Shown here piece by piece: positions 1-49,861 of a DNA stretch of 64,000 nucleotides (its first letter is position 1; each line of letters starts with the position of its first letter). Both the position numbers and the translations under genes were made by a program. The notes beneath the pieces were generated by a model that saw only the letters and a program-made list of their open reading frames with translations, searched no databases and was not told the origin of the DNA. The stretch is from Eledone cirrhosa (Eukaryota): positions 2,914,001 to 2,978,000 of the forward strand of contig OZ024756.1 in NCBI GenBank assembly GCA_964016885.1, written 5' to 3'.

Positions 1-1988
1 ACCCTGCAACAACTCCAACTTCCGCAGCAGTGGCTCTAGAGTTATTACATACAGAAGGGAGGAGAGAGGGCACCCCTGTCGGATGGACCGCGCGATTTCG
101 AACGGCTCCGAGAGGTAGCCCTTCATCTTGACCCTAGAGAAGATGCGGCTGCTGTGCATGGCATTGATCCAGCCCCTGAAAACGGGTCCGAAGCCTGCCG
201 CCGCTAGCACCGCATCCAGGTAACCATGGTCGACCATATCGAATGCCTTAGATTGATCCAAGTTGATCAGGGCCCCACCAAAGCCGGGTTCGTTCCCAAC
301 CCTCTCTATGATGTATCGCATGAGGTGGATGTTGTCGTGGATGGACCTGGACGGGATAGCACATGTCTGCGCATCTCCCACCAGGTTGCCCACGACAAGC
401 GCTAACCTCTTTGCTAGCACCTTGGCCAAAATCTGTAACTCTGTATTTAGCAGAGTTATGGGCCTGAAATTATTTATATCGTCCCCCTTGTTCTCGTCCT
501 TCCTCACTAGCGTGACTACGCCCTTGGTCACAGCACAGGGAATTCTCCCGTTCTGTTGCCAGTTGCAGTAGACCGCCTCGAGGAGATCGGAGAACAAGTC
601 CGGCATAGCTAGATATAGTTCGTATGGAAGACCATCGAGACCCGGGGATTTGCGTTTGCCGCATTGGCTCAGCACGTCCTCTATCTCAGCGGCTGAAATC
701 GGCTCCTCGCAGGACTTCGCCTCCCTGTCCGAGAGACGCAGCAGGCCGTCGAGGTATGGACCGAAGTCCACATCCCCAACCGGCCCCCCACCCCTTCCGA
801 ACAATCCGGCAAAGTGCTTTTGAAAAGCCTTGCACATCTGCTTAGGTTCAATGATCACCCGTCCATCCTGGTCTCGCAAAGACCAGATAGTGGATTTGCT
901 CCCTCTTTTGGCTTCTGTCATGCGGGCCCAGCTAACAGCTTTGGTCCCCTCGTTTCCCAGAGCACGTATTTTGCTTCGGACGATGCAGCCTTCGTTTTTC
1001 GCGTCGAAGAACTGGCCCAGGGCCGTTCTAGACGCTAGCACTCTGGCCACGTCGCCGCTTCTAATTGCCTCTTCTACACTATCTACCAACTCCCTTTCCT
1101 TCCTATTTCTATTTGAGGCTAACTCCTTACTAAATTCTATAGAGACTACTCTAATCTCTCTTTTGAGAGATACCCACCACCTGCTGTTGACGATGGCGCC
1201 CGTCAACCGCTCCTTAACTAAAGTGCTAATCCGGTCCCTGTAAGCCTTACTTGCCGGTAAGGACAAGTTGAGCTTCCAGTAACCGGGTCCCTGTCTATGA
1301 GTTCTGTCAAGGTTGACCATGCAGGTCACTAATTTGTGGTCTGAATAGCCAACCATGCGCATTTTTGGACAACTTAAAAAGTCCTTATCCTTAATTCTAA
1401 CTAAGAACCTATCTAGGTACGACCTCGATGATCCGCTACGATTTGCCCAAGTCCAGGTTGGCGCAGTCGGAAAATCTAGTCGATATCTATCGGCCAGGTC
1501 AAATCGACCGATTAACCCTTTGAGGCTATTACACCCCTCTCTATCGGGACAGGCCCCTACGTAGTCCCAGCGTGCATCTAGGATACCATTCCAGTCCCCC
1601 ACTAATAGCAAGGAGCGGGATGTCCCTAGAAATGTCTCCAGACGATGGAAGAAGTCCGGCCGCATTGACCCGAAAGGGCCGTAGGCGGCTACCAACCTAA
1701 ACGCTCCGCCTTTACCACTGCCAAGGTCCAGAACCACTAGTCGACCCTCCGGGTCCAAATGTACCATCTGTGTTGCGAGACCCAGATGTTTTTGCAGCAG
1801 AACGACAACCCCACCCCCACCTCCGGGCTGACAGAGAGATGCGTGCATCTCAAAGTCATCAAAGGTGGGGGCCAGCTGTCGCACGTTGCTGATCCGGGCC
1901 TCGCAAATAACCATCACATCTATACGTTGTGACCTGAGGTCATTTAGAAGCATTGCTTGCTTCCAAGTTCAGCCCAGGCCACGCGCAT
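1..1988 (-). mobile_element. 5'-truncated L1/Tx1-type LINE, ORF2 portion (APE endonuclease + N-terminal RT), running off the left edge
   Basis: Colinear with ORF2 of the 43672-49299 element at the same offset (45317) at both ends. Encodes GDWNG, SYLDRF, SDHK, PGYWKLN, FRPITLLN, DQSKAFD, QGCPLS. Homology stops at 1988, in ORF2 codon ~10, and abuts (AGAT)n. In-frame TGA at 1969-1971. Confidence 0.95.
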
Positions 1989-2065
1989 AGATAGATAGAT
2001 AGATAGATAGATAGAAAATGAGGATTGGAGATAGTGAGACTAAAAGAGCGAAAGGGATATATATT

Positions 2066-6900: not shown

Positions 6901-7045
6901 TGACATAGATACATACATACTTATATACATACATACATAATACTTACATACACACATACTTACATACATACATTAATACATACGTACGTACATACATACA
7001 TACATACATACTTACATACATACATACACACATACATACATACAT

Positions 7046-8510: not shown

Positions 8511-9447
<937 letters not shown>

Positions 9448-9502
9448 ATGTATGTATCTATGTGTCTATGTATATATGTATGTATATATGTGTGTATGTA
9501 TG

Positions 9503-13322: not shown

Positions 13323-15768
13323 AATTAACCCTTGTTGTCTGGTAATCTGAATATACTGCTCCTGAAATTAACCCCTGTTGTCTGGTAATCAGAATATACT
13401 GCTCCTGAAATAAACCCTGTTGCCTGATAACTAGAATATACTGCCCCTGAAATTAGCCCTGTTGTCTGGTAACCAGAATATACTGCCACTGAAATTAGCC
13501 CTGTTGTCTAGTAACTAGAATATACTGCTCCTGAAAATAACCCCTGTTGTCAGATAACTAGAATATACTGCTCTTGAAATTAACCCTTGTTGTCTGGTAA
13601 CTAGAATATACTGCCCCTGAAATAAACCCTGTTGATTGATAACTAGAATATACTGCTCCTGAAATAAACCCTGTTGTCAGATAACTAGAATATACTGCTC
13701 CTGAAATTAACCCCTGTTGTCTGATAACCAGAATATACTGCTCCTGAAATAAACCCTGTTGTCTGGTGACTAGAATATACTGCTCCTGAAATAAACCCTG
13801 TTGTCAGATAACTAGAATATACTGCCCCTGAAATAAACCGTTGTCTGGTAACTAGAATATACTGCTCCTGAAATAAACCCTGTTGTCTGGTAACTAGAAT
13901 ATACTGCTCCTGAAATAAACCCTGTTGTCTGGTAACTAGAATATACTGCTCCTCAAATAAACCCTGTTGTCTGATAACTAGAATATACTGCTCCTGAAAT
14001 TAACCCTGTTGCCTGATAACCAGAATATACTGCTGCTGAAATAAACCCTGTTATCTGGTAACTAGAATATACTGCTGCTGAAATAAACCCTGTTGTCTGG
14101 TAACTAGAATATACTGCCCCTGAAATTAGCCCTGTTGTCTGGTAACCAGAATATACTGCTCCTGAAATTAACCCTGTTGCCTGATAACTAGAATATACTG
14201 CCCCTGAAATAAACCCTGTTGCCTGATAACTAGAATATACTGCCCCTGAAATAAACCCTGTTGTCAGATAACTAGAATATACTGCTCCTGAAATTAACCC
14301 CTGTTGTCTGATAACCAGAATATACTGCTCCTGAAATAAACCATGTTGTCTGGTAACTAGAATATACTGCTCCTGAAATAAACCCTGTTGTCAGATAACT
14401 AGAATATACTGCCCCTGAAATAAACCCTGTTGTCTGGTAACTAGAATATACTGCTCCTGAAATAAACCCTGTTGTCTGGTAACTAGAATATACTGCTCCT
14501 GAAATAAACCCTGTTGTCTGGTAACTAGAATATACTGCTCCTCAAATAAACCCTGTTGTCTGATAACTAGAATATACTGCTCCTGAAATTAACCATGTTG
14601 CCTGATAACCAGAATATACTGCTGCTGAAATAAACCCTGTTGTCTGGTAACTAGAATATACTGCTGCTGAAATAAACCCTGTTGTCTGGTAACTAGAATA
14701 TACTGCTGCTGAAATAAACCCTGTTGTCTGGTAACTAGAATATACTGCCCCTGAAATAAACCCTGTTGATTGATAACTAGAATATACTGCCCCTGAAATT
14801 AACCCTGTTTTCTGATAACCAGAATATACTGCTCCTGAAATAAACCCTGTTGTATGGTAACTAGAATATACTGCTGCTGAAATAAACCCTGTTGCCTGAT
14901 AACTAGAATATACTGCCCCTGAAATAAACCCTGTTGATTGATAACTAGAATATACTGCCCCTGAAATTAACCCTGTTGTCTGATAACCAGAATATACTGC
15001 TCCTGAAATAAACCCTGTTGTCTGGTAACTAGAATATACTGCTGCTGAAATAAACCCTGTTGCTTGATAACTAGAATATACTGCCCCTGAAATAAACCCT
15101 GTTGATTGATAACTAGAATATACTTCCCCTGAAATTAACCCTGTTGTCTGATAACCAGAATATACTGCTCCTGAAATAAACCCTGTTGATTGATAACTAG
15201 AATATACTGCCCCTGAAATTAACCCTGTTGTCTGATAACCAGAATATACTGCTCCTGAAATAAACCCTGTTGTCTGGTAACTAGAATATACTGCTGCTGA
15301 AATAAACCCTGTTGCCTGATAACTAGAATATACTACCCCTGAAATAAACCCTGTTGATTGATAACTAGAATATACTTCCCCTGAAATTAACCCCTGTTGT
15401 CTGATAACCAGAATATACTGCTCCTGAAATAAACCCTGTTGTCTGGTAACTAGAATATACTGCTCCTGAAATAAACCCCTGTTGTCTGGTAACTATAATA
15501 TACTGCTCTTGAAATTAAACCCTTGTTATCTGGTAACTAGAATATACTGCTCCTGAAATTAACCCTGTTATCTGATAACTATATATACTGCTCCTGAAAT
15601 AAACCCCTGTTGTCTGGTAATCAGAATATACTGCTCCTGAAATAAACCCTGTTATCTGATAACTATAATATACTGCTCCTGAAAATAACCCCTGTTGACT
15701 GATAACCAGAATATACTGCTCCTGAAATTAACCCTGCTGTCTGATAACCAGTATAACCTGAAATTAAC
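13323..15768. repeat. 42-bp minisatellite (aaataaaccctgttgtctggtaactagaatatactgctcctg), ~58 units
   Basis: Continuous tandem units with occasional 43-bp variants. Confidence 0.97.
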
Positions 15769-15909: not shown

Positions 15910-16595
15910 TGGTTTAATGGTTAATGTATTCGGCACACAATCGTAACGTTGTGAGTTCGATTCTTGGCTTTGGGTTGTGTCTTTGAACAAGACACTTTAT
16001 TTCACGTTGTTCCAGTCCACTGTGTCTTTGAACAAGACACTTTATTTCATGTTGCTCCATTCCATTGTGTCCTTGAGCAAGACACTTTATTTCATATTGC
16101 TCCAGTCCACTGTGTCCTTGAGCAAGACACTTTATTTCATATTGCTCCAGTCCACTGTGTCCTTAAGCAAGACACTTTATTTCATGTTGCTCCAGACCAC
16201 TGTGTCCTTGAGCAAGACACTTTATTTCATGTTGCTCCAGTCCACTGTGTCCTTGAGCAAGACACTTTATTTCACGTTGCCCAGTCCACTCTGCTGGCAA
16301 AAATGAGTTGTAGCTGTAATTCTGATGGCCAGCTTGTCACATTGTGTGTCACGCCGAATCTCCCTGAGAATTACGTCAAAGGTACTCGTGTTTGAAGAAT
16401 GCTCAGACACTTTCACTGTAACACACGATGGACTGTACCTGTAATTCGAGGGGGGCCAGCCTTGTCGCATTCTACATCACGCTGAATCTCCCTGAGAACT
16501 ACGTAAAGGGTACACTTGCACGTCAATTTCCTGAGCAGGCTGTTCCGTTGAGTGGATCAACTGAGACACTCATCGTCGTATCCGACGGAGTGCCT
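15910..16595 (+). mobile_element. tRNA-derived SINE (second family) with an internal 45-bp x7 tandem amplification
   Basis: Head ggtttaatggttaa...gagttcgattc (A/B-box-like). CORE-like tgtgtccttgagcaagacactt unit repeated at 15976-16290. A related single-unit copy lies at ~38485-38675. Confidence 0.75.
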
Positions 16596-18738: not shown

Positions 18739-19371
18739 CTGTTCCAGCGGACCTCCCTCGACGTTCTCCGGGTAATGCATCAACCATCCTGTCGGCCGGA
18801 ACCTAGAGGTGCAGTGGCTGTTCCAGTACGCTACCCTCACCGTCCTCCGAGGTAATGCATTCTCCAATCTGTCGGCCGGAACCTAGAGGTGCAGTGGCTG
18901 TTCCAGTACGCTACCCTCACCGTCCTCCGAGGTAATGCATTCTCCAATCTGTCGGCCGGAACCTAGAGGTGCAGTGGCTGTTCCAGTACGCTACCCTCAC
19001 CGTCCTCCGAGGTAATGCATTCTCCAATCTGTCGGCCGGAACCTAGAGGTGCAGTGGCTGTTCCAGTACGCTACCCTCACCGTCCTCCGAGGTAATGCAT
19101 TCTCCAATCTGTCGGCCGGGACCTAGAGGTGCAGTGGCTGTTCCAGTACGCTACCCTCACCGTCCTCCGAGGTAATGCATTCTCCAATCTGTCGGCCGGG
19201 ACCTAGAGGTGCAGTGGCTGTTGAAGTATGTCTCCCTTACCGGCCTTCAGGACAATGTATTCTCCATCCCGTTGGCTAGACCCATGAGGTAGAGTAGCTG
19301 TATCAGCGCGTCTACTTCACCGTCCTCTGCGGCAATACATTCTCCATGCTGTCAGCCGGGACCCAGAGGTG
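18739..19371. repeat. 80-bp GC-rich tandem repeat, ~8 units
   Basis: acctagaggt recurs at 18801, 18881, 18961, 19041, 19121 and 19201, with diverged versions at 19281 and 19361. Confidence 0.97.
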
Positions 19372-26729: not shown

Positions 26730-27417
26730 TGAAGATGTTTCTGTCTATTTAACCTCATCCGTGTTATATAGTCTAACCAAGGCTTTCGAGCAGTTCTTGA
26801 AGATATTTCTATTTATTCGTCCTCATCAGTTTATTATAGTTTAACCAAGGATGTCGGACAGCTCCTGAAGATGTTTCTCTTGATGTAACCTCATCAGCGT
26901 ATTATAGTTTAACTAAGACTGTCTAGAATCGCCTGGGGATGTTTCTTTTTATTTGACCTCATCAGTGAAATATAGTTTAATCAAAGCTGTCGAGCAGCTC
27001 CTGGCGATGTTTCTCTTTATGTAACCTCATCAGTGTAATATAGTCTAACTAAGGTTGTCGGGCAACTCACGAGTATGTTTCTGTTTATTTGACCTCATCA
27101 GTGTAATGTAGTCCAACCAAAGCTGTCGAGCAGCACCTGGGGATGTTTATGGTTATGTAACGTCGTTAGTGTAAAATAGTTTAACCAAAGCTGTCGAGCA
27201 GCTCCTGGAATTGTTTCTGTATATGTGACCTCATTAGTGTAAAATAGTCTATTCAAGGATACCAGGCACCTCCTGAGGATGTTCCTGTATATTTGACCAC
27301 ATCAGTGTAATATAGTTTGTCCAAGGCTGTCGAGCAGCTCCTGGGACTGTTTCTGTTTATTTGACCTCATCAGTGTAATATGGTCTAACCAAGGCTGCCA
27401 GACATCTCCTGAAGATG
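26730..27417. repeat. 68-bp tandem repeat, ~10 diverged units
   Basis: cctcatc recurs at 26753, 26821, 26889, 26957 and onward, period 68. Confidence 0.95.
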
Positions 27418-28084
27418 ATTCCAAGTAGAACCGAAACTCAAATCAAACTATTCATCCTGTCCAACTTATGGAGAAATAAGAAAATAGAACGTTTGCATAG
27501 TTTCTATATAACAATACGTCCATGTTTGTCTACACATATGACATATAAGATATATATTGACACAGCTTCCGAGGTATATATTGATATATTTGTGGGGAGG
27601 GTATATGAAATCAAAGGAATCGGTCGTCAAATTGGACCGAGGAGACAGTCTCCAGGACCCGATTTATAGCTGATACTTTATCGTTTTTCCGGTGATGGGA
27701 GTCGGGTATTTGAAGTCAGAACATACAAATCCAGAACAGACACTACAAATAATCTCTCTACCCCCTCCGGACTATTTGACCAATCAACTAATCCGCCAGC
27801 TGTGGACTGGTATATCGGACAATGGACTGGTCAAGTAGCATGTTAGTTTGTTTGTTTTGTTGTATTTTGTTATATGAGAAGAGGTTGACAGGACCTCACT
27901 TGCTCAAAATTTCTCTGTGGTCAGTTTTCTTCCAGGACCCTTCACCTTAGGGCAACATGTCTGATACACAGACGTAGGGAGACAGGAGAAAAGGAGAAGA
28001 AAAAAGAAACAGAGAAAGAGAGAAAAAATGAGAGAGAGAGTTGAGAGAGAGAGTGAGTGAGAGAGAAACACAGAAAGAGAGTAA

Positions 28085-29713: not shown

Positions 29714-29775
<62 letters not shown>

Positions 29776-29782
29776 TAATAAT
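29714..29782. repeat. (AAT)n microsatellite, 3' flank of the Tx1 element
   Basis: Direct inspection. Confidence 0.97.
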
Positions 29783-30032
29783 GATTTCTTTATTAACCAC
29801 AAGGGTCTACATAAAGTAGACATTAAGGACAGTGCAGGACAATACAGTACGGTACAAATGGGCATTTCTCCGTGTAAAAAACAAAAACAGAGGATGTAAC
29901 AAAAAAATAACAATGAAAAATTCCCCAATAGAGGGGAGACTTCGGAGGGACATTTGTGGAGAAAGCCCAGTAAAAGGCCACAGTGACCCCACCACCAAGG
30001 CAAGTGCCCTCTCCCAGTTTTCCACCTTTAAT

Positions 30033-32251
30033 TTACAGATATATACTCAGAGTAGGCCCATTCACTCGGGCCATTCTTGCTTCTCTCACCCATCTTTCAA
30101 CAAAATCCTGGGAAGAGAGCACTTCCCTCTCTACTCTGATTTTCCTTTTCAAATGAAATTTGAAAAAGTCAATCAGGGCATCACCGAAGAGGTAAGTGCT
30201 CGTCTTCAGCCCTTTCAAACGTGTCCACCATACTACCTCTTTCGCCATGGCCACCAGACAGATAAAAACTGCCTGCCCTTCCCGGCTAAAGGAAGAGGGC
30301 GGGGCAATCCTCACGATGGACTCAGATGATAGCCGGATCCGTCCTATACGCGACAGCAGGTGTTCGACATAAACAGGGCAGATGTCGCTGTGCATGGCAG
30401 CAATCCAGCCTCTGAAGACGGGCCCAAAGCCAGCCGCCCTCAGGACTGCCGCTAGGTAACGATGCTCGACCCTATCGAAGGCTTTCGACTGATCTAAATT
30501 GATCAAAGACCCACCCGTGCCAGGTTCCCTAGCTACCCTCTCTACGATGTATCGCATGAGGTGGAGGTTCTCGTGGATGGATCTGTCGGGAATGGCGCAT
30601 GTCTGCGCCTCTCCCACCAGACCACCAACGACAAGCGCCAATCGCTTTGCTAGCATCTTGGCCAAAATTTTGAACTCTGTGTTTAGCAGAGATATGGGCC
30701 TGAAATTATCTATGTTATCCCCCTTGTTCGGATCCTTTCTCAGCAGTGCCACCGCTCCTCGGCTCACAGAGCTGGGAATTCTCCCGTTCTGTTGCCAGTT
30801 GCAGTAGACGTCCGCCAAGAGGCCTCCGAACAAGTCTGGCATCTGTACGTAAAGTTCATAGGGCAGACCATCCAAACCAGGCGGTTTACCCCATGTGCAG
30901 CGAGTCATTGCCTCCCGTACTTCAGCGGCTGTTATCGGCTTTTCGCAACACTCCGCCTCAGTGGCCGAGAGCCGCGGCAGTCCGTCGAGGTAGACACTAA
31001 ACTCCATCCCTCGACCCGGCCCACCGCTGCCCCCGAACAGCTGAGCGAAGTGTCGCTGAAAAGCTTCACACATTTGCCCGGGATCGAGTAGCATGCGCCC
31101 GTCGTGGTCCACCAAAACCGGATCGTGGCTTTGTTGCCACGACGCGCCTCCGCCACTCGGGCCCATTGAACGGCTTTCGTCCCCTCGTGTCTGAGAGGAC
31201 GCACCCTAGCACTGACAACGCAGCCTTCGTGCTTTGCATTGAAGAATTGGTCAAGGGCCAATTTCGCCGCAAGCACGTCGGTCGCGATGCCTTTGCTAAG
31301 CGCCTCGTCTAATTTTCTAACTAGTTCTCCCTCTGCTCTATTTTTCTCTATTGCTAAAGCCTTACTAAACCTAATGGATTCTATTCTAATCGTTCTTTTC
31401 AGAGCAAACCACCACTTGTTGTTGACGATGGCCCCCGTCAACGCCCGCTTAACTAGTTCGCTAATCCGGTCTCTGTAGGCCTTGCGCGCTGGTAAGGACG
31501 CGTTTAGCTTCCAGTAGCCGGGTCCTCGTCTATGAAGCCTATCTAAGTCAAGCACACAGATCACGAATTTGTGGTCCGTGTAGCTGACTATCTTGAATTG
31601 TGGACAGCCTATGCTAGCTCTATCTATTTCCCTACAAAATACTTTATCTAGATATGATCTGGATGACCCTATGCGATTTGTCCAAGTCCACATTGGCACA
31701 TTCGGGAAATCCAATCGGTACCTGTCAGACAGTTCAAAACGCCTGAGCAGGTTGGTGAGGCTGTTGCACCCTCCACCCCTATCCGCTAATCCCACACAGT
31801 CCCAGCGTGCATCTAAGATCCCGTTCCAGTCGCCCACTAACACTAAAGAGCGGGACGTTCCAAGAAAGGTCTCCAGACGCCGGATGAAATCAGGCCGCCC
31901 TGCTCCTGTCGGGGCATAGACAGCCACTAGCCTGAAAGCTTGCCCGTCTCCGCTGGTCACGTCCAGCACCACCAACTTACCCTCTGGGTCCAGGAAGATG
32001 GCCCGTATGGCGAGATCCAAACCTCTTCGAAAAAGCACAGCAACTCCTCCCCCCGATCCAGGACGGCTGGGAGATGCGTACACATCGTAGCCGCCGAAGA
32101 TCGGTGCGAAGGCCCGTGCTTCGGAGATTCTGGTCTCGCTGATGGCCACTACATCTATGTTTAGTGACCTGAGGTCGTTGAGCAGGTGACCCTGCTTCCA
32201 TGACGAGCCCAAGCCACGCGCATTTATGCTGCCTATTCTGAGTAAGGTCAT
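30033..32251 (-). pseudogene. Tx1 ORF2 pseudogene (APE intact, RT truncated)
   Basis: ORF 30932-32251 (SINARGL, GDWNG, YLD, TDHK, PGYWKLN) frameshifts near 31120 into ORF 30033-31166 (PGLDGLP, FRPISLLN, DQSKAFD). It then jumps to the C-terminal YVEHLLSR with no QG/YADD motifs or zinc finger. Confidence 0.93.
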
Positions 32252-32286
32252 GTTTAAAATGGAGTGGAAAAGATGGGAAAGACCAC

Positions 32287-34316
32287 TTACCGTACTTTTC
32301 GTAGAGGAAGGATGGTTTCTCCATCCCTTTTCACTTGATCGTCTGGTGAAGGGACCGTTGAATCGTCCCTTCGGCTGGTCGTCGGCTCTTCTATGAGTAT
32401 GTCCGAATATACTCTCCGGTTGAGAGTCCCTCCTAGGTCTCTGAAATCACCAACTGCGTTGGGGAATTTCGTTTTTATGTTTGTGTATTGTTTCTGTGCT
32501 ATTTTTACCAGTCTTATGTACGTTGGCGTTTTGATTGGTGCTGCTATTATGTAGTCGTGCTGTGAAATGTCTGTGTGTTCAATTATGTAAGTCATTAGTT
32601 TCTTGTTGTGTGTATTTATTGCCGTGCATTTGTTTTTCTGGGGGTGGGGTGTGGTTCTGCTATTTTCTTGTCATTGTTGCTGGGTGTGTGTGTTTTGTTG
32701 TTGTGTTTGCGATGTTGGTGCTTGTGGTGGTGGTGTTGAAGGTGTTGTTGTTGTTGGCGGTGGGGTTGTCGCCGGTGGTGATGGTGGTGCTAGTGTGGGT
32801 GGTGATGGTGTTGGTGGTGTTGCTGCTGTGAGTCTCTTTGCAGTAGCCTTTACCCTTTTTTCATTTCTTTCCTCCCTTTTCGAAGGCGACGATGCGCTGC
32901 TTCTGCGTTTGTGCCTTCTTACGACCTTTTGCCATCCCTCTCCCTCTCACACTCCATGTCTGATTCTGTGAGGTCGGGGAGTGGCACCAGCTCCACTCTT
33001 TCACTTGTTGTTGTTGGTGCTGTTTGCAGTGGAGTCTCTGTTGCAGCTGCATTTGGTATAACTGTTGTTATTGTTAATACTTCCACTGCTGCTGCTGTTC
33101 TTGATTTCCGTGGCGTGGGTATGGGTGCCACGGAGCTTTCGTTCCTGGTTGCCGCTTGTCCTGTTGCTGGTAGTCGTGGAGCCGGTTTCGGAAGGACGGT
33201 GGTTTTCTCCTTTCTCAGGGTCTTCTCGTTGCAGAAGGCTCTGAGGTGAGTCTTCGATCCACAGCGAAAGCATTTCGGGCGTTTGCCCTCAACACTTATA
33301 GGCAGTTGAGTGCCGTTATCGAAGTCTATCACATCCGGGATAGCTTCGATGCACTCCTGGTTGGTTTGGATTAACATCTCAATGGAGGTGCCGACCCAAT
33401 CTTCTCTTACTTTTTTCTGTACTTGCAGTACAGTTGTTTTGTCCTCGATTCCGACGAGGACAGACGCGGCCAGCCAAGAAGGGGCCATCCTGGGGGGGAC
33501 GTGGGTCAATTTGACCCTCACAATTTTTTGCCCGCACTAGGAGGGCACCAACACCATTTCCTCGCTCCTTAGGGCCACTAAGGATTGAGCCTTTGCCTCC
33601 TGGGGTGTGGCAAAAAGCACATCTACGGTGGCATATTTCTTGCCTCGGGTGATATGCGTTTTCTGCTGCCACACAGACCCTAAGGCTTTTTGTATTTGAG
33701 CCTCTGTGGCTCTTTCAACCCTACGGGATTTTGTGCTTACTGTACGGTACGTGACCGTACAGTGCTGTTGGGTTTCGAAAAATGTTTCGGCTGCCTTGCA
33801 GATTACTCGGTGTCCGGTTTTCGTCACCATCTTCTTCGCTTCCTGTAATTCCTCATTTGTTATGAGGATGGTTTCCAGGTTCTTTGCGATACCTGCAAAC
33901 GAGATTGGTTTTTCTTTGCTACTGTTGTTGTTGTTGTTGTTGTCGTCAGAGCTGCTGTTACTTTTGTTGTTGCTGCAAGTACTACGACTACTGCCGCCGC
34001 CGCTGTTGCTGTGGTTGTTGTTGTTGTTGTTGCTGCTGCTACTAATGCTGTTGTTGTTTATGCTGCTGCTGATGCTGTTGCGGCTGCTACTGTTGTTTTC
34101 CTTGCCACTGTTGCTGCTGCTGCTGCTGCTGTTATTACGGCTGCTACTGCTATTATTCATGACGTCAGACGAATGAAATGGGTTTTCGTATTTCCCGCAC
34201 ACCTTTTTCGTCGTTGTCGCCGTCGTGGAGAAATGTTCCTTGATTTGCACGTGATTTTGTAAACTATTTTTCTTTACTGGCGTCGCTTGCGAAAGAGAAG
34301 GTAGGGAGAGAGACAC
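32287..34316 (-). pseudogene. Tx1 ORF1 (gag-like, CCHC zinc knuckle) pseudogene
   Basis: Segments 33537-34316, 32919-33521 (same frame, TAG between) and 32287-32595. CFRCGSKTHLRAFC knuckle preceded by VEGKRP, as in the intact ORF1. Frameshift near 32945. True start codon uncertain. Confidence 0.88.
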
Positions 34317-34641
34317 ATTTAGAGAAGGGAGGGAGAGAGACGATCTTCTCTCTGCTGTAGTGACGATTGAGAAGAAGAAGACGGAATGAGTGGGAGTGAC
34401 TTGTGAAAATTCTTTTTCGCAGCCATGTTTTTTTTGGGTTTAAAATAAATATTGGGCACAAAACCCCAATAAGCGGTTATTTAAGCTCGAAGGGCCAAAT
34501 AACGGGCAAAAAGACCCCTCTCACGAGGAGGAGGGTGTTTTTATCTACAGTTTAGTTAAAGTTTTTAACAATTTACAATTGTTATAGCGGTCAAAATTTA
34601 CAATACCTTTCAGAGCCGAGCCTCCGTCAACCATGGCATTC

Positions 34642-34732
<91 letters not shown>

Positions 34733-34745
34733 ATAAATAAATAAT
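34642..34745. repeat. (AAT)n microsatellite, 5' flank of the Tx1 element
   Basis: Direct inspection. Confidence 0.97.
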
Positions 34746-34949
34746 AAAGAAATAAAAAGACCCCCAAAAGATGACACTTTCTCCCCTTGAAACTATTGTG
34801 ACATAAAGATATAAACTAATGTTAACAAGATCCTCAATTGTTGTTAATTCCATATTCTTCCTTTCATTCCTTCATATTTTACTGGCTTTTTTTGTTTCTT
34901 TCTGGTTTTATTTCTAGCGTTTCTTTCTTTCATTTTTTTAAAATCTATT

Positions 34950-36689: not shown

Positions 36690-37762
36690 TTTCTCTTTCT
36701 CTTAATTTCGAGTACATATTTGATCGGCCACCTTCCTGGTGGCAAGATTGTAAAAGAAAAGAAATTGTCATCCTTTGAATCGCAAGAATATTTTGCAAAT
36801 TTTGAAGGTGCCAGATATCGCAGCCGTTTGTAGTCTATGAATTAGGGAGCTGCGCTCTTAGTCCACAAATCCAAGTTCAGTTATACGTTCGTTCAAGCGG
36901 GTTGGTATATAACCTGTAATTCCAATAAGGATGGATGTGAAGCTGAAGGTGAATCTTGGATCTGCAAACTCCTCATCAATGGTCCGTAGATGTCCTCCTT
37001 CTCCTGTATTTTTGTGACAACATTGACATCAAGTGGGCAGCTGATCTCTACAACAGAACACGTTTTCAATGTATGGTATCAAACAACAATATCAGGCCAG
37101 TTGTGCTTTAATTTGGTGGCAGTTTTTATTTTCAAGTTCCACCAGTATTCTTCAGTGCCATCTATCTCAACATATTCCTCCTCATTTGTTATTAATTTTG
37201 TTTTCCTAAGTGCGTTCCAGATGGTTCTAGCTATCCCATCGTGTCTCATAGGGAGGTAGTAGGGAGACGACATTCTTTCGCAGTTGACTACAACGTGGCT
37301 AACATCTTCGATCTTTGTTTTACAAAGCCTAGATTTATTGTCGACTGATGGCCCTCCTCTTTTGTGTAGCAGATATTTGGTAGGGATTTCTTGTTCCTGT
37401 ACTGCATAGAGATATCCTTCAAGGTGGGATGTTATAAACTTGTCGGAACTCCATGGTTAAACCACTGGGATTGAAGGACCCCTAGCCTTTGTCAGGGCAT
37501 TCTTCTAGGAGGAGGCAACTCAGGAAACTGGGATAACTCCGATATAAAACCTGCGGCTCAGTAGTTATCGATGATGTTGATCTTTTCTTCTTTTCGGGTT
37601 ATAGCTAGTGTCGCTCAGAGAGTGGGATTGGCTCAGTGCACAGTCTTTCCTCACTTTAAAAAATATCTTCACACACAGGTATTGCACGATAGAATTAATT
37701 AATAATTATTAATAATGGTATATCGTGCAATGGCCATACTCGATAACGAGAGGGCAGCCATC
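36690..37762 (-). mobile_element. RLE-type (R4/Dong-like) LINE derivative: non-coding 5' segment (37762-37455) fused to the C-terminal ORF and 3'UTR (37454-36690)
   Basis: Translation LEGYLYAVQEQEIPTKY...(S)RLCKTKIEDVSHVVVNC...MRHDGIA...KHNWPDIVV..VVEISCP gives a CCHC knuckle, RHD and a PD-type RLE. (TATG)n on both sides. Confidence 0.88.
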
Positions 37763-43671: not shown

Positions 43672-43895
43672 AATTTCTGTTTATTTGCCACTAGGGCACA
43701 AAAGAAAGGGACATGTACATGGGTGGGGGGAGTTTACATAAAAATCGAGTAAGAAAAATATAACAAACAAAATAATAACAAGAAGGTCCTCAATAGGGAG
43801 GGATCGTTTTGGGGTCACACACACCCCCGAAAAAAAGTGTGCGACCCTTCTCCACGGGAGCACAAAGAGAGGGTGCTCCCTTCTTTCTGTTCCAC

Positions 43896-46800
43896 CTACA
43901 GGCTGAGGTAGAGAGAAGGCCCATTCACACGGGCCATTCTCGCAACTTTCACCCACCTTTCATAAAACTGGCTGGAGTGGAGCACCTCTCTCTCCATCCT
44001 GATCCTTCTTCCGAAATGGTATCGGAAGAAAAGGACCAGTTGTTGGCCGGAGAGAAAGGTGTCCGACCTCAGCCCTTTCAGACGCGTCCACCATATAGCC
44101 TCTTTTACCATGGCTATTACACAGAGGAAGACCGCCTCTCCTTCATTTTTGAAGGGGGGAGGCGGCTTGATCGTTACAATGGACTCGGTGGTCAACCTAA
44201 TTGGTCCCACCCGTGACAGCAGTCGTTCGACATAGCCCCACAGATCGGCAACGCCCGGGAAGTGCACCAATGCGTGCGCGACGGTTTCCTCGTCGCGCAC
44301 GCATCTGGGACAGATCTTTTTCGAGGGGTCCCTACCCGGGCGCCCGTGTCTGTAGAGCTTATCCCGAATGGGCAGAGCACCTCGGTAGCACTGCCAGGCC
44401 AAGGACTTCTGGAAGTTGTCCATAGGTCCCGGGCCGAAAGTCCTACCGAATAGGCTGGCCAGTTCGTCCTCCTCCATGCCTAGGGTTTCTCCGAGGGCGT
44501 CGTCGCACCCGCTAACCACCAGCCCTCTATAGAATGACGAGGTGGAGTCTCCGTCGATAGCCGGGTCCGCCTTCCAGAGAGCCGTGAGCGCCTGGGCACA
44601 CTCGGTGTGCCAGTCGCCCAGTTTTCTCGGTCTTTGCTTCACCCAGGACTGCAGCTCGGTGAGCGAGACGAGCCTCGGGAAGGCTCGCCTCACAAACGGG
44701 GCCCACACCGGTTGACCGGTGAGGAATACGTGGAGGTGCCTTAGCCTCAATGCGTGTTTACGCATTTTTAGCCACGGCATCCCCAGCCCTCCTTTCAAAG
44801 GGTTTTGACAGCAGATGGATCTCCTCACCAGAGGAGACCTCTTCTTCCAAAGGAAATAAAAGAGGGCGCGCTCCATTTTGGCGAGGATCTCACCCGGGCA
44901 AGGCACGACAGTCAAGCGGTAATAGATGACGGACGCTATGTAAGCATTCGCCACCTCCGCCCGACCTTTTAGGGATAGTTTGCACTCGGCCCACTTCTGG
45001 GTCAGTGCAAACACCCTATTCGTCACCTCACCCCAGTTTTTCTCCACCTGGAGGTCCGGTCCGAACCAGACCCCAAGCAACTTCACCGGGCCCTCCGTCC
45101 ACCGTCCGACGATACCGTCGCACGACATCGCTTTGCCCCTCCACTCGTCGAGTTGCAAAGCGACTGACTTGTCCCGGTTCAGCTTAGCCCCTGTCAACCT
45201 TTCGTACTCCTCTAGTAAGGTGCCGATTGCCTCGATTTCCGAGGCGGTCGACACCATTACTGTTACGTCATCGGCGTAGGCCGACACCGCTTTGCGCAAT
45301 CCCGGTTCCAAAGGGATGCCCTGCAACAACTCCAACTTCCGCAGTAATGGCTCGAGAGTCAACACATACAGAAGGGAGGAGAGAGGGCACCCCTGTCGGA
45401 TGGAGCGGGTGATTTCGAACGGCTCCGAAAGGCAGCCGTTCACCTTGACTCTAGAGCAGATGCGGCTGCTGTGCATGGCAGTGATCCAGCCCCTGAAAAC
45501 AGGTCCGAACCCAGCCGCCGCTAGCACCGCATCCAGGTAACCATGGTCCACTCTATCGAACGCTTTAGACTGATCTAAATTTATCAGGGCCCCACCAAAG
45601 CCGGGTTCGTTCCCAACCCTCTCTATGATGTATCGCATGAGGTGGAGGTTGTCGTGGATGGACCTGGACGGGATAGCGCATGTCTGCGCATCTCCCACCA
45701 GGCCCCCCACGACAAGCGCCAACCTCTTCGCTAACACCTGCGCCAAAATCTTTAACTCTGCATTTAGCAGAGTTATGGGCCTAAAATTACTAATGTCATC
45801 CCCCTTGTTTTCGTCCTTCCTCACTAGCGAGACTACGCCCTTGGTCACAGAACAGGGAATTCTCCCGTTCTGTTGCCAGTTGCAGTAGACCGCCTCGAGG
45901 AGATCGGGGAACAAGTCCGGCATATTAATATATAGTTCGTAGGGCAGACCATCGAGTCCTGGAGATTTGCGTTTGCCGCATAGGCTCAGCACGTCCCCTA
46001 TTTCAGCAGCTGAGATCGGCCCGTCGCAGGACCTCGCCTCCCTGTCCGAAAGACGCGGCAGGCCGTCGAGGTATGGACCGAAATCCACATCTCCAACCGG
46101 CTCCCCGCCCCTCCCGAACAATTGGGCAAAGTGCCTTTGAAAGGCCTCGCACATTTGCTTAGGTTCAAGGATCAGCCGTCCATCCTGGTCTCGCAAAGAC
46201 CGGATAGTGGATTTAATCCCACTTTTCGCTTCTGTCACGCGGGCCCAGCTAACAGCTTTGGTCCCCTCGTTTCCCAGAGCACGTATTTTGCTTCGGACAA
46301 CGCAGCCTTCGTGTTTCGCGTCGAAGAACTGGTTCAAGACCGTTCTCGACGCTTGCACTCTGGCCACGTTGCCGCTTCTCATTGCCTCTTCAACATTAAC
46401 TACCAACTCCCTTTCCTTCCCATTTCTATCTGAGGCTAACTCCTTACTAACTCCTATTGAAACTACTATAATCTCTCTTTTTAGAGAGCCCCACCACCTG
46501 TTGTTGACGATGGCGCCCGTCAACTGCTCCTTAACTAAGGTTCTAATCCGGTCCCTGTAAGCTCTACTTGCCGGTAAGGACAAGTTGAGCTTCCAGTAAC
46601 CGGGCCCCTGCCTATGCGTTCTATCAAGGTGGACTACGCAGGTCACTAACTTGTGGTCTGAATAGCCCACCATGAGCATTTCTGGACAACTTAAAAAGTC
46701 CCTATCCTTAATTCTAACTAAGAACCTATCTAGGTACGATCTAGATTGACCACTGTTATTTGACCAGGTCCAGGTTGGTACAGTCGGAAAATCTAGTCGG

Positions 46801-47333
46801 TATCTATCGGCCAGGTCGAATCGGCCGATTAACCCCTTAAGGCTGTTACACCCCCCTCTATCGGGACATGCCCCTACATAGTCCCAACGTGCATCTAGGA
46901 TACCATTCCAGTCCCCCACTAAAAGCAAGGAGCGGGGCGTCCCTAGAAAAGTCTCCAGACGATGGAAGAAGTCCGACCGCATTGCCCCAAAAGGGGCGTA
47001 TACGGCGACAAGCCTAAAAGCTTCGCCTTCGCCATTGCCAAGGTCCAGAACCACGAGTCGACCCTCCGGGTCCAAGTGTACCGTCTGTGTAGCGAGACCC
47101 AGATGTTTTTGCAGCAGAACGACAACCCCACCCCCACCTCCAGGCTGACAGAGAGATGCGTGCATCTCAAAGTCATCAAAGGTGGGGCTTAGCTGTCGCA
47201 TGCTGCTGATCCGGGCCTCGCAAATAACCATCACATTTACACATTGTGACCTGAGGTCACTTAGAAGTTTAGCTTGCTTCCAAGGTGAGCCCAGGCCACG
47301 CGCATTTAGACAACCTACTCTTAAGACAGCCAT
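43896..47333 (-). CDS. LINE ORF2: APE endonuclease + reverse transcriptase + C-terminal zinc-finger region (1145 aa)
   Basis: CLNARGL, GDWNG, SYLDRF, SDHK; PGLDG, FRPITLLN, DQSKAFD, RQGCPLS, AYADD, LLGV; CPRC..ETVAHALVHF. Confidence 0.97.
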   Translation of the reverse strand: MAVLRVGCLNARGLGSPWKQAKLLSDLRSQCVNVMVICEARISSMRQLSPTFDDFEMHASLCQPGGGGGVVVLLQKHLGLATQTVHLDPEGRLVVLDLGNGEGEAFRLVAVYAPFGAMRSDFFHRLETFLGTPRSLLLVGDWNGILDARWDYVGACPDRGGCNSLKGLIGRFDLADRYRLDFPTVPTWTWSNNSGQSRSYLDRFLVRIKDRDFLSCPEMLMVGYSDHKLVTCVVHLDRTHRQGPGYWKLNLSLPASRAYRDRIRTLVKEQLTGAIVNNRWWGSLKREIIVVSIGVSKELASDRNGKERELVVNVEEAMRSGNVARVQASRTVLNQFFDAKHEGCVVRSKIRALGNEGTKAVSWARVTEAKSGIKSTIRSLRDQDGRLILEPKQMCEAFQRHFAQLFGRGGEPVGDVDFGPYLDGLPRLSDREARSCDGPISAAEIGDVLSLCGKRKSPGLDGLPYELYINMPDLFPDLLEAVYCNWQQNGRIPCSVTKGVVSLVRKDENKGDDISNFRPITLLNAELKILAQVLAKRLALVVGGLVGDAQTCAIPSRSIHDNLHLMRYIIERVGNEPGFGGALINLDQSKAFDRVDHGYLDAVLAAAGFGPVFRGWITAMHSSRICSRVKVNGCLSEPFEITRSIRQGCPLSSLLYVLTLEPLLRKLELLQGIPLEPGLRKAVSAYADDVTVMVSTASEIEAIGTLLEEYERLTGAKLNRDKSVALQLDEWRGKAMSCDGIVGRWTEGPVKLLGVWFGPDLQVEKNWGEVTNRVFALTQKWAECKLSLKGRAEVANAYIASVIYYRLTVVPCPGEILAKMERALFYFLWKKRSPLVRRSICCQNPLKGGLGMPWLKMRKHALRLRHLHVFLTGQPVWAPFVRRAFPRLVSLTELQSWVKQRPRKLGDWHTECAQALTALWKADPAIDGDSTSSFYRGLVVSGCDDALGETLGMEEDELASLFGRTFGPGPMDNFQKSLAWQCYRGALPIRDKLYRHGRPGRDPSKKICPRCVRDEETVAHALVHFPGVADLWGYVERLLSRVGPIRLTTESIVTIKPPPPFKNEGEAVFLCVIAMVKEAIWWTRLKGLRSDTFLSGQQLVLFFRYHFGRRIRMEREVLHSSQFYERWVKVARMARVNGPSLYLSL

Positions 47334-47356
47334 GTTGGTGGCAAAGAAAGAGGCAC

Positions 47357-49126
47357 TTACCTCTCTGCGTCCCGGGGTTCGGGTCGCTCAGTTTCCATGG
47401 GGCTGGTGGAGGGGTTGATGGGTGGGGTGGTGGTTTGTGGTGGTGTGGGGGTATTAGTGTGTGGAGGGGTTGGGATCTTTGGAGTTGTGTGGGTGTTTGA
47501 GGAGGGGAGGGGAAAGCCTTTCAGGAGGACGCGGTTGAGTGGCCTGGTGCAGGGTGGGCCCACGTCCTCAGGGTACATGTCTTTTAAAGTTTTGAAAATG
47601 TCAAGTGGGATTTTCACCATTTTCAGGTTAGGGAGCCCCATTGCCGTTACGAAATTCGGCCCTTCGGTTTGTATCGAAGGGTTGGTTTCTATTTTTAAAG
47701 TTAGGTTTTCATTGTTTTTGTTTATGTATGTGTAGAGTTTTTGTGTTGTTGTGTTTGTTTTTGCTTGTTGTTGTTGAGTGAGTTTGCGTTTTATTGTCTG
47801 TGTTGTGTTGTCAGGTGGGGTTATTTTTGTTGTTGTGGTGTGTGTACGTTTTTTTCTTTTCACTTTTTGGAAGGGAGCCCCCTCGTCTTCCGACGATATG
47901 AGCTCCTCTTCCGTATTGGAGGGGAGGGGTATATCTCCGGGTTGTGTATGAACTGTTTTTGTATTTGTGTTCTGTGGGGTGGGGCTGGGTGGGACCGTGT
48001 TTTGGGTTGTTTTCTTGAGCTGTTGTTGATGTTGTTGTTGTTGTTGTTGTGGTGGTGGTGGTGGTGGTGGTGGTGTTGTTGGTTTTTGTTGTTCTGGTGG
48101 AGATGGTAGTGTATTTTGTTGTTTTTGTGATGGTGGTGCTGGTTGTTTTTGTTGTTGTTGTGGTGTTTGTAGCAGTGGTTTTTTAGTTGTTAGTAGAGGG
48201 CAGGCCGTCCTCAGGTGACCTCTGCCAGCGCAGTGGTAACATGAGGGTCTCCTGCCTTCCACTGTGATATTTATGTAGGTTCGCCCATCCAGTAGCACTC
48301 GGTCGGGTATTCCGGAGATTCTCTCAGGTGTCATCTGTAAGAGAACCTCCGGACTTTTCCCGCCGAACAGTCCACTGGTGGACTCCCCTGCTGAAATTAG
48401 TATGTCCTTATCTAGGTCGGTAAATCCTGTTAGGACGGACCAGATGTTAATTTCTGGCGTAGGGCTCCACATTCTTATCCTTTGTGTTCTTCTTCCTTTA
48501 TATGTGGGGAAGAAGGTGTATTGTGGTGACACTATGGGTGCCACCGAATATTTCTGAGCCAGCATTTCGTCCTTCATTCGGACCATAATGCTGGCATACA
48601 GCTTTCCTCTTTGAATAAAGAGTATATCATTTTTAATTTCTTTAAGAACCAGCTCGATTTGACTTTCGGTCAATTGCGCTGGCTTTCTCGTTTCGTTGGT
48701 TATGGTTCTGAAGCTTACGGTATTCTTGTAAATCTGTTGACGTACTTCTTCTGGGGAGTTGATCGTAAAAGAACCATCCTCCCCAAAAGATACGTATTTT
48801 CTAGCCTCTAGCAAATTTTCCTTGGCGTTCGTGATGTCAATGGCTTTGTATTCCGTGGCTCTCCTGAGTGTTTGGGCAAAAGAAATTTTGTCTTTGTTTG
48901 TTGTTGTAATGTTGTTGGTTTCCTTATTTGTGGTGTTATTTTTTTCTTGAAAATTAATTTTTTCATTTGAATTGAAATTCTTTTTTTCATTGGAGAGGAG
49001 GGGTTGTTCAACAGTTTGAACTGTTGTTCCCTCTTTCCAGCTTGTTTTTTTGGTCGGCGTGGCGTTCGCTTCCAGTATGGCGATATCGTTTTCGACGATA
49101 TCGTTATCAACGATATCGATAAACAT
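47357..49126 (-). CDS. LINE ORF1: gag-like nucleic-acid-binding protein with a CCHC zinc knuckle (589 aa)
   Basis: CYHCAGRGHLRTAC (CX2CX4HX4C), P/Q/T-rich linker, basic KVKRKKR. Lies upstream of ORF2. Confidence 0.92.
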   Translation of the reverse strand: MFIDIVDNDIVENDIAILEANATPTKKTSWKEGTTVQTVEQPLLSNEKKNFNSNEKINFQEKNNTTNKETNNITTTNKDKISFAQTLRRATEYKAIDITNAKENLLEARKYVSFGEDGSFTINSPEEVRQQIYKNTVSFRTITNETRKPAQLTESQIELVLKEIKNDILFIQRGKLYASIMVRMKDEMLAQKYSVAPIVSPQYTFFPTYKGRRTQRIRMWSPTPEINIWSVLTGFTDLDKDILISAGESTSGLFGGKSPEVLLQMTPERISGIPDRVLLDGRTYINITVEGRRPSCYHCAGRGHLRTACPLLTTKKPLLQTPQQQQKQPAPPSQKQQNTLPSPPEQQKPTTPPPPPPPPQQQQQQHQQQLKKTTQNTVPPSPTPQNTNTKTVHTQPGDIPLPSNTEEELISSEDEGAPFQKVKRKKRTHTTTTKITPPDNTTQTIKRKLTQQQQAKTNTTTQKLYTYINKNNENLTLKIETNPSIQTEGPNFVTAMGLPNLKMVKIPLDIFKTLKDMYPEDVGPPCTRPLNRVLLKGFPLPSSNTHTTPKIPTPPHTNTPTPPQTTTPPINPSTSPMETERPEPRDAER

Positions 49127-49299
49127 TTCTCAAATATTTATTTTTCACCCCAAAAGGGGTGAAAATATATTTACCCGACGTCTAGAGTCCCAGACTAGAG
49201 GTTACAGTTAATTATACAAAAGAATTCAAAAAAATCCACTCACAAAATTAGCAGGTAAAAATCCAAATCACGGAGCGATACGAAACAAGTCTACTATCC

Positions 49300-49647
49300 A
49301 CAGACAGACAGACAGACAGACAAAAAGACAGACATACATACATACAAAGCTATATATTGGTAGTGTTTACGCATGAAAAGTATTTCGACATTACGTTATA
49401 CAGAGGGGGTCTTAGCTGCTAATTATGATTCAGTCAGACACACAGACATACAGACTGACAGACAGAGAGACTGACAGACAGACAGACAGACAGACAGACA
49501 GAGAGACTGACAGACAGACTGACAGACAGGCTGACAAACATATATACATATAACGCTATATATTGGTAGTGTTTACGCATGACAAGTATTTCGACATTAC
49601 GTTATACAGAGGAGGTCTGCTAATTATGAATCAGACAGACAGACAGA
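49300..49647. repeat. (GACA)n microsatellite with a duplicated ~85-bp insert (49350-49435, 49556-49635)
   Basis: tatatattggtagtgtttacgcatga.aagtatttcgacattacgttatacagagg occurs twice. Confidence 0.9.
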
Positions 49648-49861
49648 ACTGAGAGAATATGAGAGATTGTTATCAGAGAAACTATAGCTAACTCTGGCAA
49701 CAGATCTTACGTGTCTCTATGGAGGGCGGGGGTGGGGTGGGTGGGTGAGAGTGGGGGGAGAGGGGGTTCTGTGCGGGGCTGTGTCTGTGTGGTTCAGGAT
49801 GTCTGTGTGCGTGTGATTGTGACTGTGTGTGTTTGTGTATGATGTAGAGTGGGTTTCAGTA

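Follow-up and report, generated by a model that had tools for sequence, protein, structure and literature searches.

Does a long interspersed nuclear element (LINE) that lies between two tracts of one simple repeat owe its position to a choice of target, and if so, does its own endonuclease make that choice? The question is raised by a 64,000-nt stretch of the Eledone cirrhosa genome (GCA_964016885.1, contig OZ024756.1, positions 2,914,001 to 2,978,000; hereafter the window), in which a LINE of likely Tx1 type, element A, is bordered on both sides by (AAT)n. Two related copies, elements B and C, lie elsewhere in the same window next to other repeats. The association between these copies and microsatellites is real and goes beyond local chance. 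The explanation that we consider somewhat more probable than all others together is that the family of A inserts at (AAT)n by target-primed reverse transcription, with the A-rich strand nicked and used as primer and its APE-type endonuclease as the main selector.

Microsatellite junctions of three LINE copies

The three copies and the arrays that matter for their junctions are as follows (ORF, open reading frame):

29714..29782, no strand: (AAT)n at the 3' junction of A, (ATT)n in element sense, with a single ATC variant unit near the junction
29783..34641, minus strand: element A, likely Tx1-type LINE, spanning the full length but internally deleted and non-autonomous
34642..34747, no strand: (AAT)n at the 5' junction of A, decaying outward into A-rich sequence
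43672..49299, minus strand: element B, with ORF1 of 589 aa (49126-47357) and ORF2 of 1145 aa (47333-43896), both intact
1..1986, minus strand: element C, 90% identical to B in nucleotides, 5'-truncated at about APE codon 10, with one stop at 1971 and its 3' part beyond the window
1987..2015, no strand: (ATAG)7 array bordering C on its 5' side, which reads (TATC)n in the sense of the element

All five visible junctions of the three copies adjoin perfect tri- or tetranucleotide arrays of rare classes, always oriented so that the T-rich strand runs in element sense, and each copy adjoins a different repeat: (ATT)n for A, (TGTC)n for B and (TATC)n for C. Both copies whose two ends lie in the window (A and B) show the same repeat in the same polarity at either junction. 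The arrays beside A comprise 23 units with 96% matches (29714-29782) and approximately 35 units, or about 105 nt, with a degenerate, A-rich outer edge (34642-34747), while B sits within degenerate (GACA)n whose tracts at the two junctions, 16 and 23 nt long, are perfect. A and B are 71% identical across 1871 bp, which bears out the original prediction, made from the window's sequence, of a diverged but homologous element with (AAT)n on both sides. The same prediction held that related families occupy different microsatellites, and C, a copy absent from it, adds a third repeat to the set.

The local background was measured as perfect arrays of at least 12 nt within the 51,328 non-element bases of the window. 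Such microsatellites make up 19.9% of these bases and are mostly AT (11.9%) and AC (2.4%), with AAT, ACAG and AGAT contributing 0.46%, 0.19% and 0.09%, the elements' own flanks included. None of the five junctions lies at the abundant AT, AC or ACAT arrays of the window. Arrays of tri- and tetranucleotides whose A-rich strand is the plus strand, the class into which all five junctions fall, amount to 2.8% of the non-element bases, and the chance that C, as an unselected draw, would land there is about 3%. Only C provides an unbiased test, since A and B were picked for their flanks.

It is conceivable, if rather improbable, that the pattern reflects a loose preference or passive accumulation, for example in flexible A-rich DNA of a microsatellite-rich genome, or else chance, survival bias and selection by the reader. 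The high microsatellite content of the window would suit this explanation, as would the distribution of three copies over three repeats with none used twice, and passive accumulation has been proposed for Drosophila Waldo-A/B (PMC3812793). It sits poorly with the rarity of the classes used (0.09-0.46% each) when AT and AC, together 14%, are left unused, with the low chance calculated for C, and with the exactness of the junctions.

Origin of the arrays and control of target choice

If the family of A selects (AAT)n, the ORF2 protein of an intact family member would nick an (AAT)n array already in place, on its A-rich strand, and the nicked 3' end would then prime copying of the element RNA from just behind AATAAA. 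A short target duplication would be left hidden inside the repeat, and slippage could later alter the length of the array. The B/C lineage would act likewise at (TGTC)n and (TATC)n, with either one relaxed (TRTC)n preference or two subfamily preferences. L1 is primed from a T-rich strand by poly(A) RNA. The present copies show no poly(A) tail, and their priming strand would be the A-rich one, with which poly(A) RNA, unlike in L1, could not pair. Published work regards the endonuclease as the chief determinant of Tx1 microsatellite targeting (PMC4494074, PMC3812793), and endonuclease-led targeting is the likely, though still putative, mode in these elements.

The nearest non-cephalopod relatives offer a comparison for the element ends. 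They comprise 42 loci in GTDB contigs, 41 of them in one genome labelled Arenicella and one in a contig labelled Rhodospirillales, and their LINE content and flanking microsatellites mark them as evidently animal DNA in bacterial bins. They match ORF2 of B colinearly, at 39-40% identity, and stand in arrays, head to tail, with a period of 6.4-6.8 kb. All 33 distinct 3'-end strings recovered from them (57 matches, from overlapping loci) stop at AATAAA, with neither a repeat nor poly(A) behind it. Target duplications of 14 nt and 16 nt were found at two loci, L041 and L020. L041 is a lone degenerate relative on the Rhodospirillales-labelled contig, likely animal DNA too, where the duplication stands at ~4770 and 10570, directly behind AATAAA and with no tail.

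These ends bear on a further possibility, which we regard as very doubtful, namely that A itself made its (ATT)n from a 3' repeat tail together with a short target duplication or microhomology, later expanded by slippage. It is common for LINE 3' ends to bear microsatellites or to give rise to them (PMC3812793, PMC6007223), and the two arrays of A share unit and polarity. In sequencing run X14, no alternative 3' junction appeared among the best 24 of 5305 loose-end rows, a weak point, as the same is equally expected under targeting. Such an origin does not account for the 5' array of A, which is the longer one and degenerates outward, for the repeat at the point where C is truncated or for the array around B, and it is at odds with the tailless relatives. 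At 69 and ~105 nt, the arrays of A are longer than the duplications of 14-16 nt in those relatives, and the greater length and outward decay of its 5' array fit an old array better than a tail; because the relatives' lineage adds no tail, the arrays of A are probably target DNA. Because C is 5'-truncated, the repeat beside it cannot be a 3' tail and cannot belong to a 5' end either. The array around B pre-dates the insertion, as it is degenerate on both sides and a unit of ~205 bp is duplicated at 49300-49650, such that one copy forms the 5' flank of B and the other holds a matching degenerate GACA tract without an element.

Selection could also be real but set mainly by the RNA, with a transcript carrying (AUU)n or (UGUC)n from the donor's flank and pairing with the nicked A-rich strand; this we consider unlikely. 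The 3' ends have a shared layout, as the original prediction stated: in element sense, A ends in AATAAA-GAAATC-(ATT)n, with the signal 6 nt ahead of the repeat, and B ends in AATAAA-CAGAAAT followed by a (T)TGTC repeat, giving a signal-to-repeat distance of 6-7 nt in the two copies. Cleavage of the 3' end takes place 10-30 nt behind AAUAAA. At a distance of only 6-7 nt, transcripts could end inside the flanking repeat. Pairing by the RNA would also agree with the identical strand polarity at all five junctions and with the B/C pair, whose APE domains are 88% identical (dS, the synonymous distance, 0.20-0.28) although their repeats, (TGTC)n and (TATC)n, differ by one base. RNA-target pairing is said to aid priming in the I factor, R1Bm and R2Ol (second-hand, PMC6007223). 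Against it, the AATAAA-ended relative L041 inserted into non-repeat DNA with an overlap of ~1 nt, and the reverse transcriptase (RT) lineage can apparently prime without long pairing. An extension of this idea, to which we give little credence, is that octopod Tx1 families inherit their target through RNA carrying the donor's flanking repeat; little endonuclease change would then be needed to move among (TGTC)n, (TATC)n and (ATT)n, and B and C would represent a switch caught early.

Endonuclease, coding capacity and family of element A

The endonuclease proposed as selector is preserved in A within an otherwise damaged element. The internal features of A, all on the minus strand, are listed from the 3' end (UTR, untranslated region):

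29783..30032: 3' UTR
29789..29794: AATAAA polyadenylation-signal-like hexamer, 6 nt ahead of the repeat
30033..30371: ORF2 C-terminal remnant, corresponding to B ORF2 residues 1034-1145 (62%)
30371..30378: internal-deletion junction, where ~407 codons are missing (the RT core together with most of the C-terminal domain, B residues 627-1033)
30378..31115: linker and RT N-terminal half, corresponding to B residues 380-626 (72%); of the 205 positions of Pfam RVT_1, only 5-105 are covered
31544..32251: open-frame APE endonuclease domain (Exo_endo_phos in Pfam, E 6e-14), modelled with pLDDT 96 in the L1-EN fold
31571..31597: FKIVSYTDH, strand and turn ahead of catalytic H227
31655..31687: hairpin T189-S199, counterpart of the L1-EN betaB6-betaB5 loop
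32284..32291: GGTAAGT, splice-donor-like, overlapping the ORF1 stop just ahead of the ORF2 start
32287..34426: ORF1 remnant with candidate ATG at 34426, 31% identical to B ORF1 residues 81-309
34427..34641: 5' UTR, with family-level depth in runs X5 and X1

As the original prediction claimed, the APE frame of A is open (32251-31544), and the catalytic-type residues E39, Y112, D141, N143, D202 and H227 are retained, of which we take E39 and Y112 to be the counterparts of L1 endonuclease (L1-EN) residues E43 and Y115. Between A and B, amino-acid identity is 60% in the APE domain and 74% in the RT part. Judged by codon comparison of the copies, the APE domain is evolving under purifying selection, with a ratio of nonsynonymous to synonymous change (dN/dS) of 0.17-0.27. 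A model built from a 50-row alignment (predicted local distance difference test, pLDDT, 96) replaced one from an 11-row alignment (pLDDT 65) and matches L1-EN with Z 29.6 and a root-mean-square deviation of 2.2 A over 228 residues. The catalytic residues D145, D205 and H230 of L1-EN are named in PMC1950540, and the hairpin grafted in that work lies between T192 and S202 (PDB 1vyb, 2v0r, 2v0s). This segment aligns to T189-S199 of A, which forms a two-strand hairpin in the model and has the nine-residue length of its L1-EN counterpart. The hairpin reads WTNRIGSSR in A, WSNNSGQSR in B and WANRSGSSR in C. The original prediction had instead pointed to FKIVSYTDH as the loop to test, which misplaced it, as residues 219-227 make up a strand and a turn that end at the catalytic histidine. 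A serine or threonine ahead of DH was rejected as a marker of target, because TDH also occurs in array relatives without microsatellite flanks. A second candidate specificity region is the loop at 147-161, in which A differs from B and C. It is probably the equivalent of an R1Bm loop for which a major-groove contact is predicted (PMC1950540).

Several observations weigh against selection of (AAT)n by the endonuclease. An alignment of the APE domains, proposed at the outset, did find A and B diverged, but the specificity hairpin is no more diverged than the remaining APE (4/9 residues between A and B, p 0.52; 3/9 between B and C, p 0.09), and excess hairpin divergence was rejected accordingly. 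Loop grafts in L1-EN changed nicking without passing on the specificity of the donor, so that the loop swap suggested for moving specificity has already been tried there with no modular transfer, and L1-EN nicking in vitro is less selective than integration (both PMC1950540). A and B were selected by their flanks, each family is represented by one copy and its target therefore rests on 1/1, and about one fifth of the non-element window is microsatellite. In addition, the nearest non-cephalopod relatives lack a microsatellite at all 33 distinct 3' ends and at all six 5' starts viewed (6 of 8 uncovered locus starts), which means that the lineage does not show targeting throughout.

Element A is a dead, non-autonomous copy, a feature that the original prediction did not include. 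Its ORF2 follows B residues 1-378 up to a frameshift near 31116, continues with residues 380-626 and then jumps to 1034-1145, which means that the RT core is absent; its ORF1 is interrupted by a stop at 33537-33539 and shifts frame near 34370 and near 32945. The stop, the frameshifts and the ORF2 deletion of ~407 codons rule out A as an active element. With autonomy taken to require intact ORF1 and ORF2, A is excluded and B qualifies. Low-complexity coding repeats of (CAA/CAG) type are present in ORF1 of A (33905-34157 and 32716-32819) and likewise in ORF1 of B and of the array relatives.

The lesions are private to this copy, and other family members are free of them, as shown by overlaying reads from 4 of 16 listed public runs (X1, X5, X10 and X14) on A. 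At position 33537, letters other than the stop of A account for 217,652 of 217,799 in depth in X5 and for 295/295 reads in X14. The frameshift at 31116 is missing from 38,650 of 41,300 reads and that at 34370 from 918 of 1090, and at 30374, the deletion junction, 34,663 X14 reads extend into sequence that A does not have. The family of A is present at high copy number in two organisms, with matches to ~40,000 contigs in each of organisms E and A, to 275,797 restriction-site-associated DNA (RAD) reads in organism E and to 184 contigs in run X10. In X5 and X1, depth over ORF2 and the 3' UTR is greater than over ORF1, partly inflated by cross-mapping of B-type sequences.

Relatives, known systems and other features of the window

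The organization of these elements is that of L1-group LINEs. ORF2 has an N-terminal APE, an RT and a C-terminal zinc-binding region; an upstream ORF1 with RNA-binding or zinc-knuckle features is present (31% identity between A and B); and the elements lack long terminal repeats and are 3'-anchored, with one 5'-truncated copy (C). Pfam detected Exo_endo_phos (1.9e-6), RVT_1 (3e-26) and, below the cut-off, zf-RVT (0.006) in ORF2 of B, and the APE (6e-14) and half of the RT (2e-12) in A. The best PDB match of B ORF2 is L1 ORF2p (E 1e-49, compared with 3e-17 for R2). ORF1 of B has a weak zf-CCHC match (E 0.068), and its Atlas look-alikes carry zf-CCHC, RRM_1 and ZCCHC3-type domains at 0.89-0.92, which serves as a lead only. 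Trees set A, B and C in a cephalopod group beside unnamed elements, with no named Tx1 reference among the matches; membership of the Tx1 clade is likely, the label resting on the type of ORF1, on sequence motifs and on the abundance that has been reported for L1-Tx1 in octopus. The Dong/R4 clade is ruled out by the presence of an APE, instead of a restriction-like endonuclease, at the N-terminus of ORF2.

The closest named protein homologs come from Argonauta hians and Octopus sinensis. RT trees group B with C and an Argonauta protein (P0002) and leave A outside (support 99/99 with 29 rows and 86/74 with 20 rows), so the description of A and B as sister families does not hold. A second Argonauta protein, which shares 75% identity with A and 73% with B, falls outside the B/C/P0002 group. 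Both A and B represent old lineages, given that B groups with C and the Argonauta element to the exclusion of A, and their synonymous distance is near saturation (dS 0.9-1.5); by these trees and distances, their split probably pre-dates the divergence of Octopus and Argonauta. On this evidence the contrast between A and B is not a recent target switch, and the recent contrast is that between B and C.

Related Tx1 families dividing up microsatellites is a published principle; the novelty here lies in the host group, in the trio of repeat units and in a pair as close as B and C. Kibi in (TC)n and Koshi in (TTC)n are Tx1-clade LINEs of teleosts (Kojima and Fujiwara 2004, cited in PMC4494074 and PMC3812793) and resemble the present elements as APE-type, Tx1-like families that occupy different microsatellites, with the endonuclease presumed to be the selector. 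Here, however, the host is an octopod, the units (ATT, TGTC and TATC) are not pure pyrimidine/purine, the likeness is one of description, and one copy represents each family. Crocodilian Tx1 group 2 (Tx1-1_Crp, Tx1-5_Crp and others) occurs in (TTCC)n or (TTTC)n, families being assigned where more than 20% of flanks are one repeat type (PMC4494074). These close families are split between tetranucleotides one base apart, as are B and C, but in other units and another host, and they were established by a census of flanks, compared with single copies in the window. Waldo, Mino and Dong are listed with Kibi, Koshi and crocodilian Tx1 as microsatellite-targeting, by a mechanism described as not well understood (PMC3812793), and Tx1 is one of three target-specific groups (PMC4640811).

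Dong shares with A the repeat class of its flanks and has molluscan hosts. It belongs to the R4 clade, as the label Dong-R4 implies. R4 is a restriction-like-endonuclease clade (PMC4640811), Dong targets (TAA)n, including DongBg in a snail (PMC3812793), and Dong-R4 has been recently active in Octopus vulgaris (PMC13282606). As A carries an APE and Dong a restriction-like endonuclease, a shared target would be convergent. L1-Tx1 has expanded in coleoids (PMC8967140), and O. vulgaris has 80 L1-Tx1 families, 13 of them recently active, the main text of that report containing no target analysis (PMC13282606); A, B and C probably belong to this class. The literature searched held no account of octopod Tx1 targets; Repbase lay outside that search and may record some.

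If specificity holds across the families, octopods offer recently active Tx1 families and three repeat targets not found in the literature searched, and the placement of LINE insertions at some octopus microsatellite loci would not be random. B is an intact full-length copy, and the B/C pair, which lies outside the coordinates of A, is the best asset of the window, providing a cleaner test of control by endonuclease or by RNA pairing than the 60%-identical A and B.

Among the relatives, L001-L040 and L042 (CAXXMW0100000xx, labelled Arenicella sp.) form pure arrays of several subfamilies, with neighbours ~99% identical and contigs of up to 94 kb, and are likely host sequence that was wrongly binned into the genome of a GTDB species representative. 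A literature search on head-to-tail Tx1 arrays returned nothing relevant, and no related loci were found in viral or metagenome contig collections. Rfam gave no matches in the window and in 7 loci, and ARAGORN found no tRNAs in 8 loci, which argues against an RNA-gene target or head. An Octopus sinensis tectonic-3-like protein (P0003) begins with ~60 residues of the LINE's APE (64% identity), probably through a gene-model error and possibly through exonisation.

The sequence GGTAAGT stands at the ORF1 stop, just 5' of the ORF2 ATG, in A (32284-32291), B (47354-47362) and L007 (~6990-6996); it is found at 66/66 pattern-matched ORF2 starts of the 39%-identical relatives (overlapping loci) and is altered in L041. 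By its resemblance to a splice donor, it could yield an ORF1-only spliced RNA or bind U1, with AG-GTGGAA, which A and B have close to their ORF2 stop, as a possible acceptor; a literature search on splice donors in such elements found nothing.

Other retroelement fragments lie on the minus strand at 9058-9465 and 37079-37456. They carry an HNRPDI-like motif, with zf-RVT (E 1e-5) in the second, and are probably C-terminal pieces of restriction-like-endonuclease LINEs. Open frames at 61843-62253 (minus strand; no Pfam match) and 63244-63903 have motifs that we take to be those of Penelope-type endonuclease and RT fragments. Minisatellites are located at 13323-15755, 15976-16290, 18755-19371 and 26730-27421, with periods of 42 (58 copies), 45, 80 and 68, respectively.

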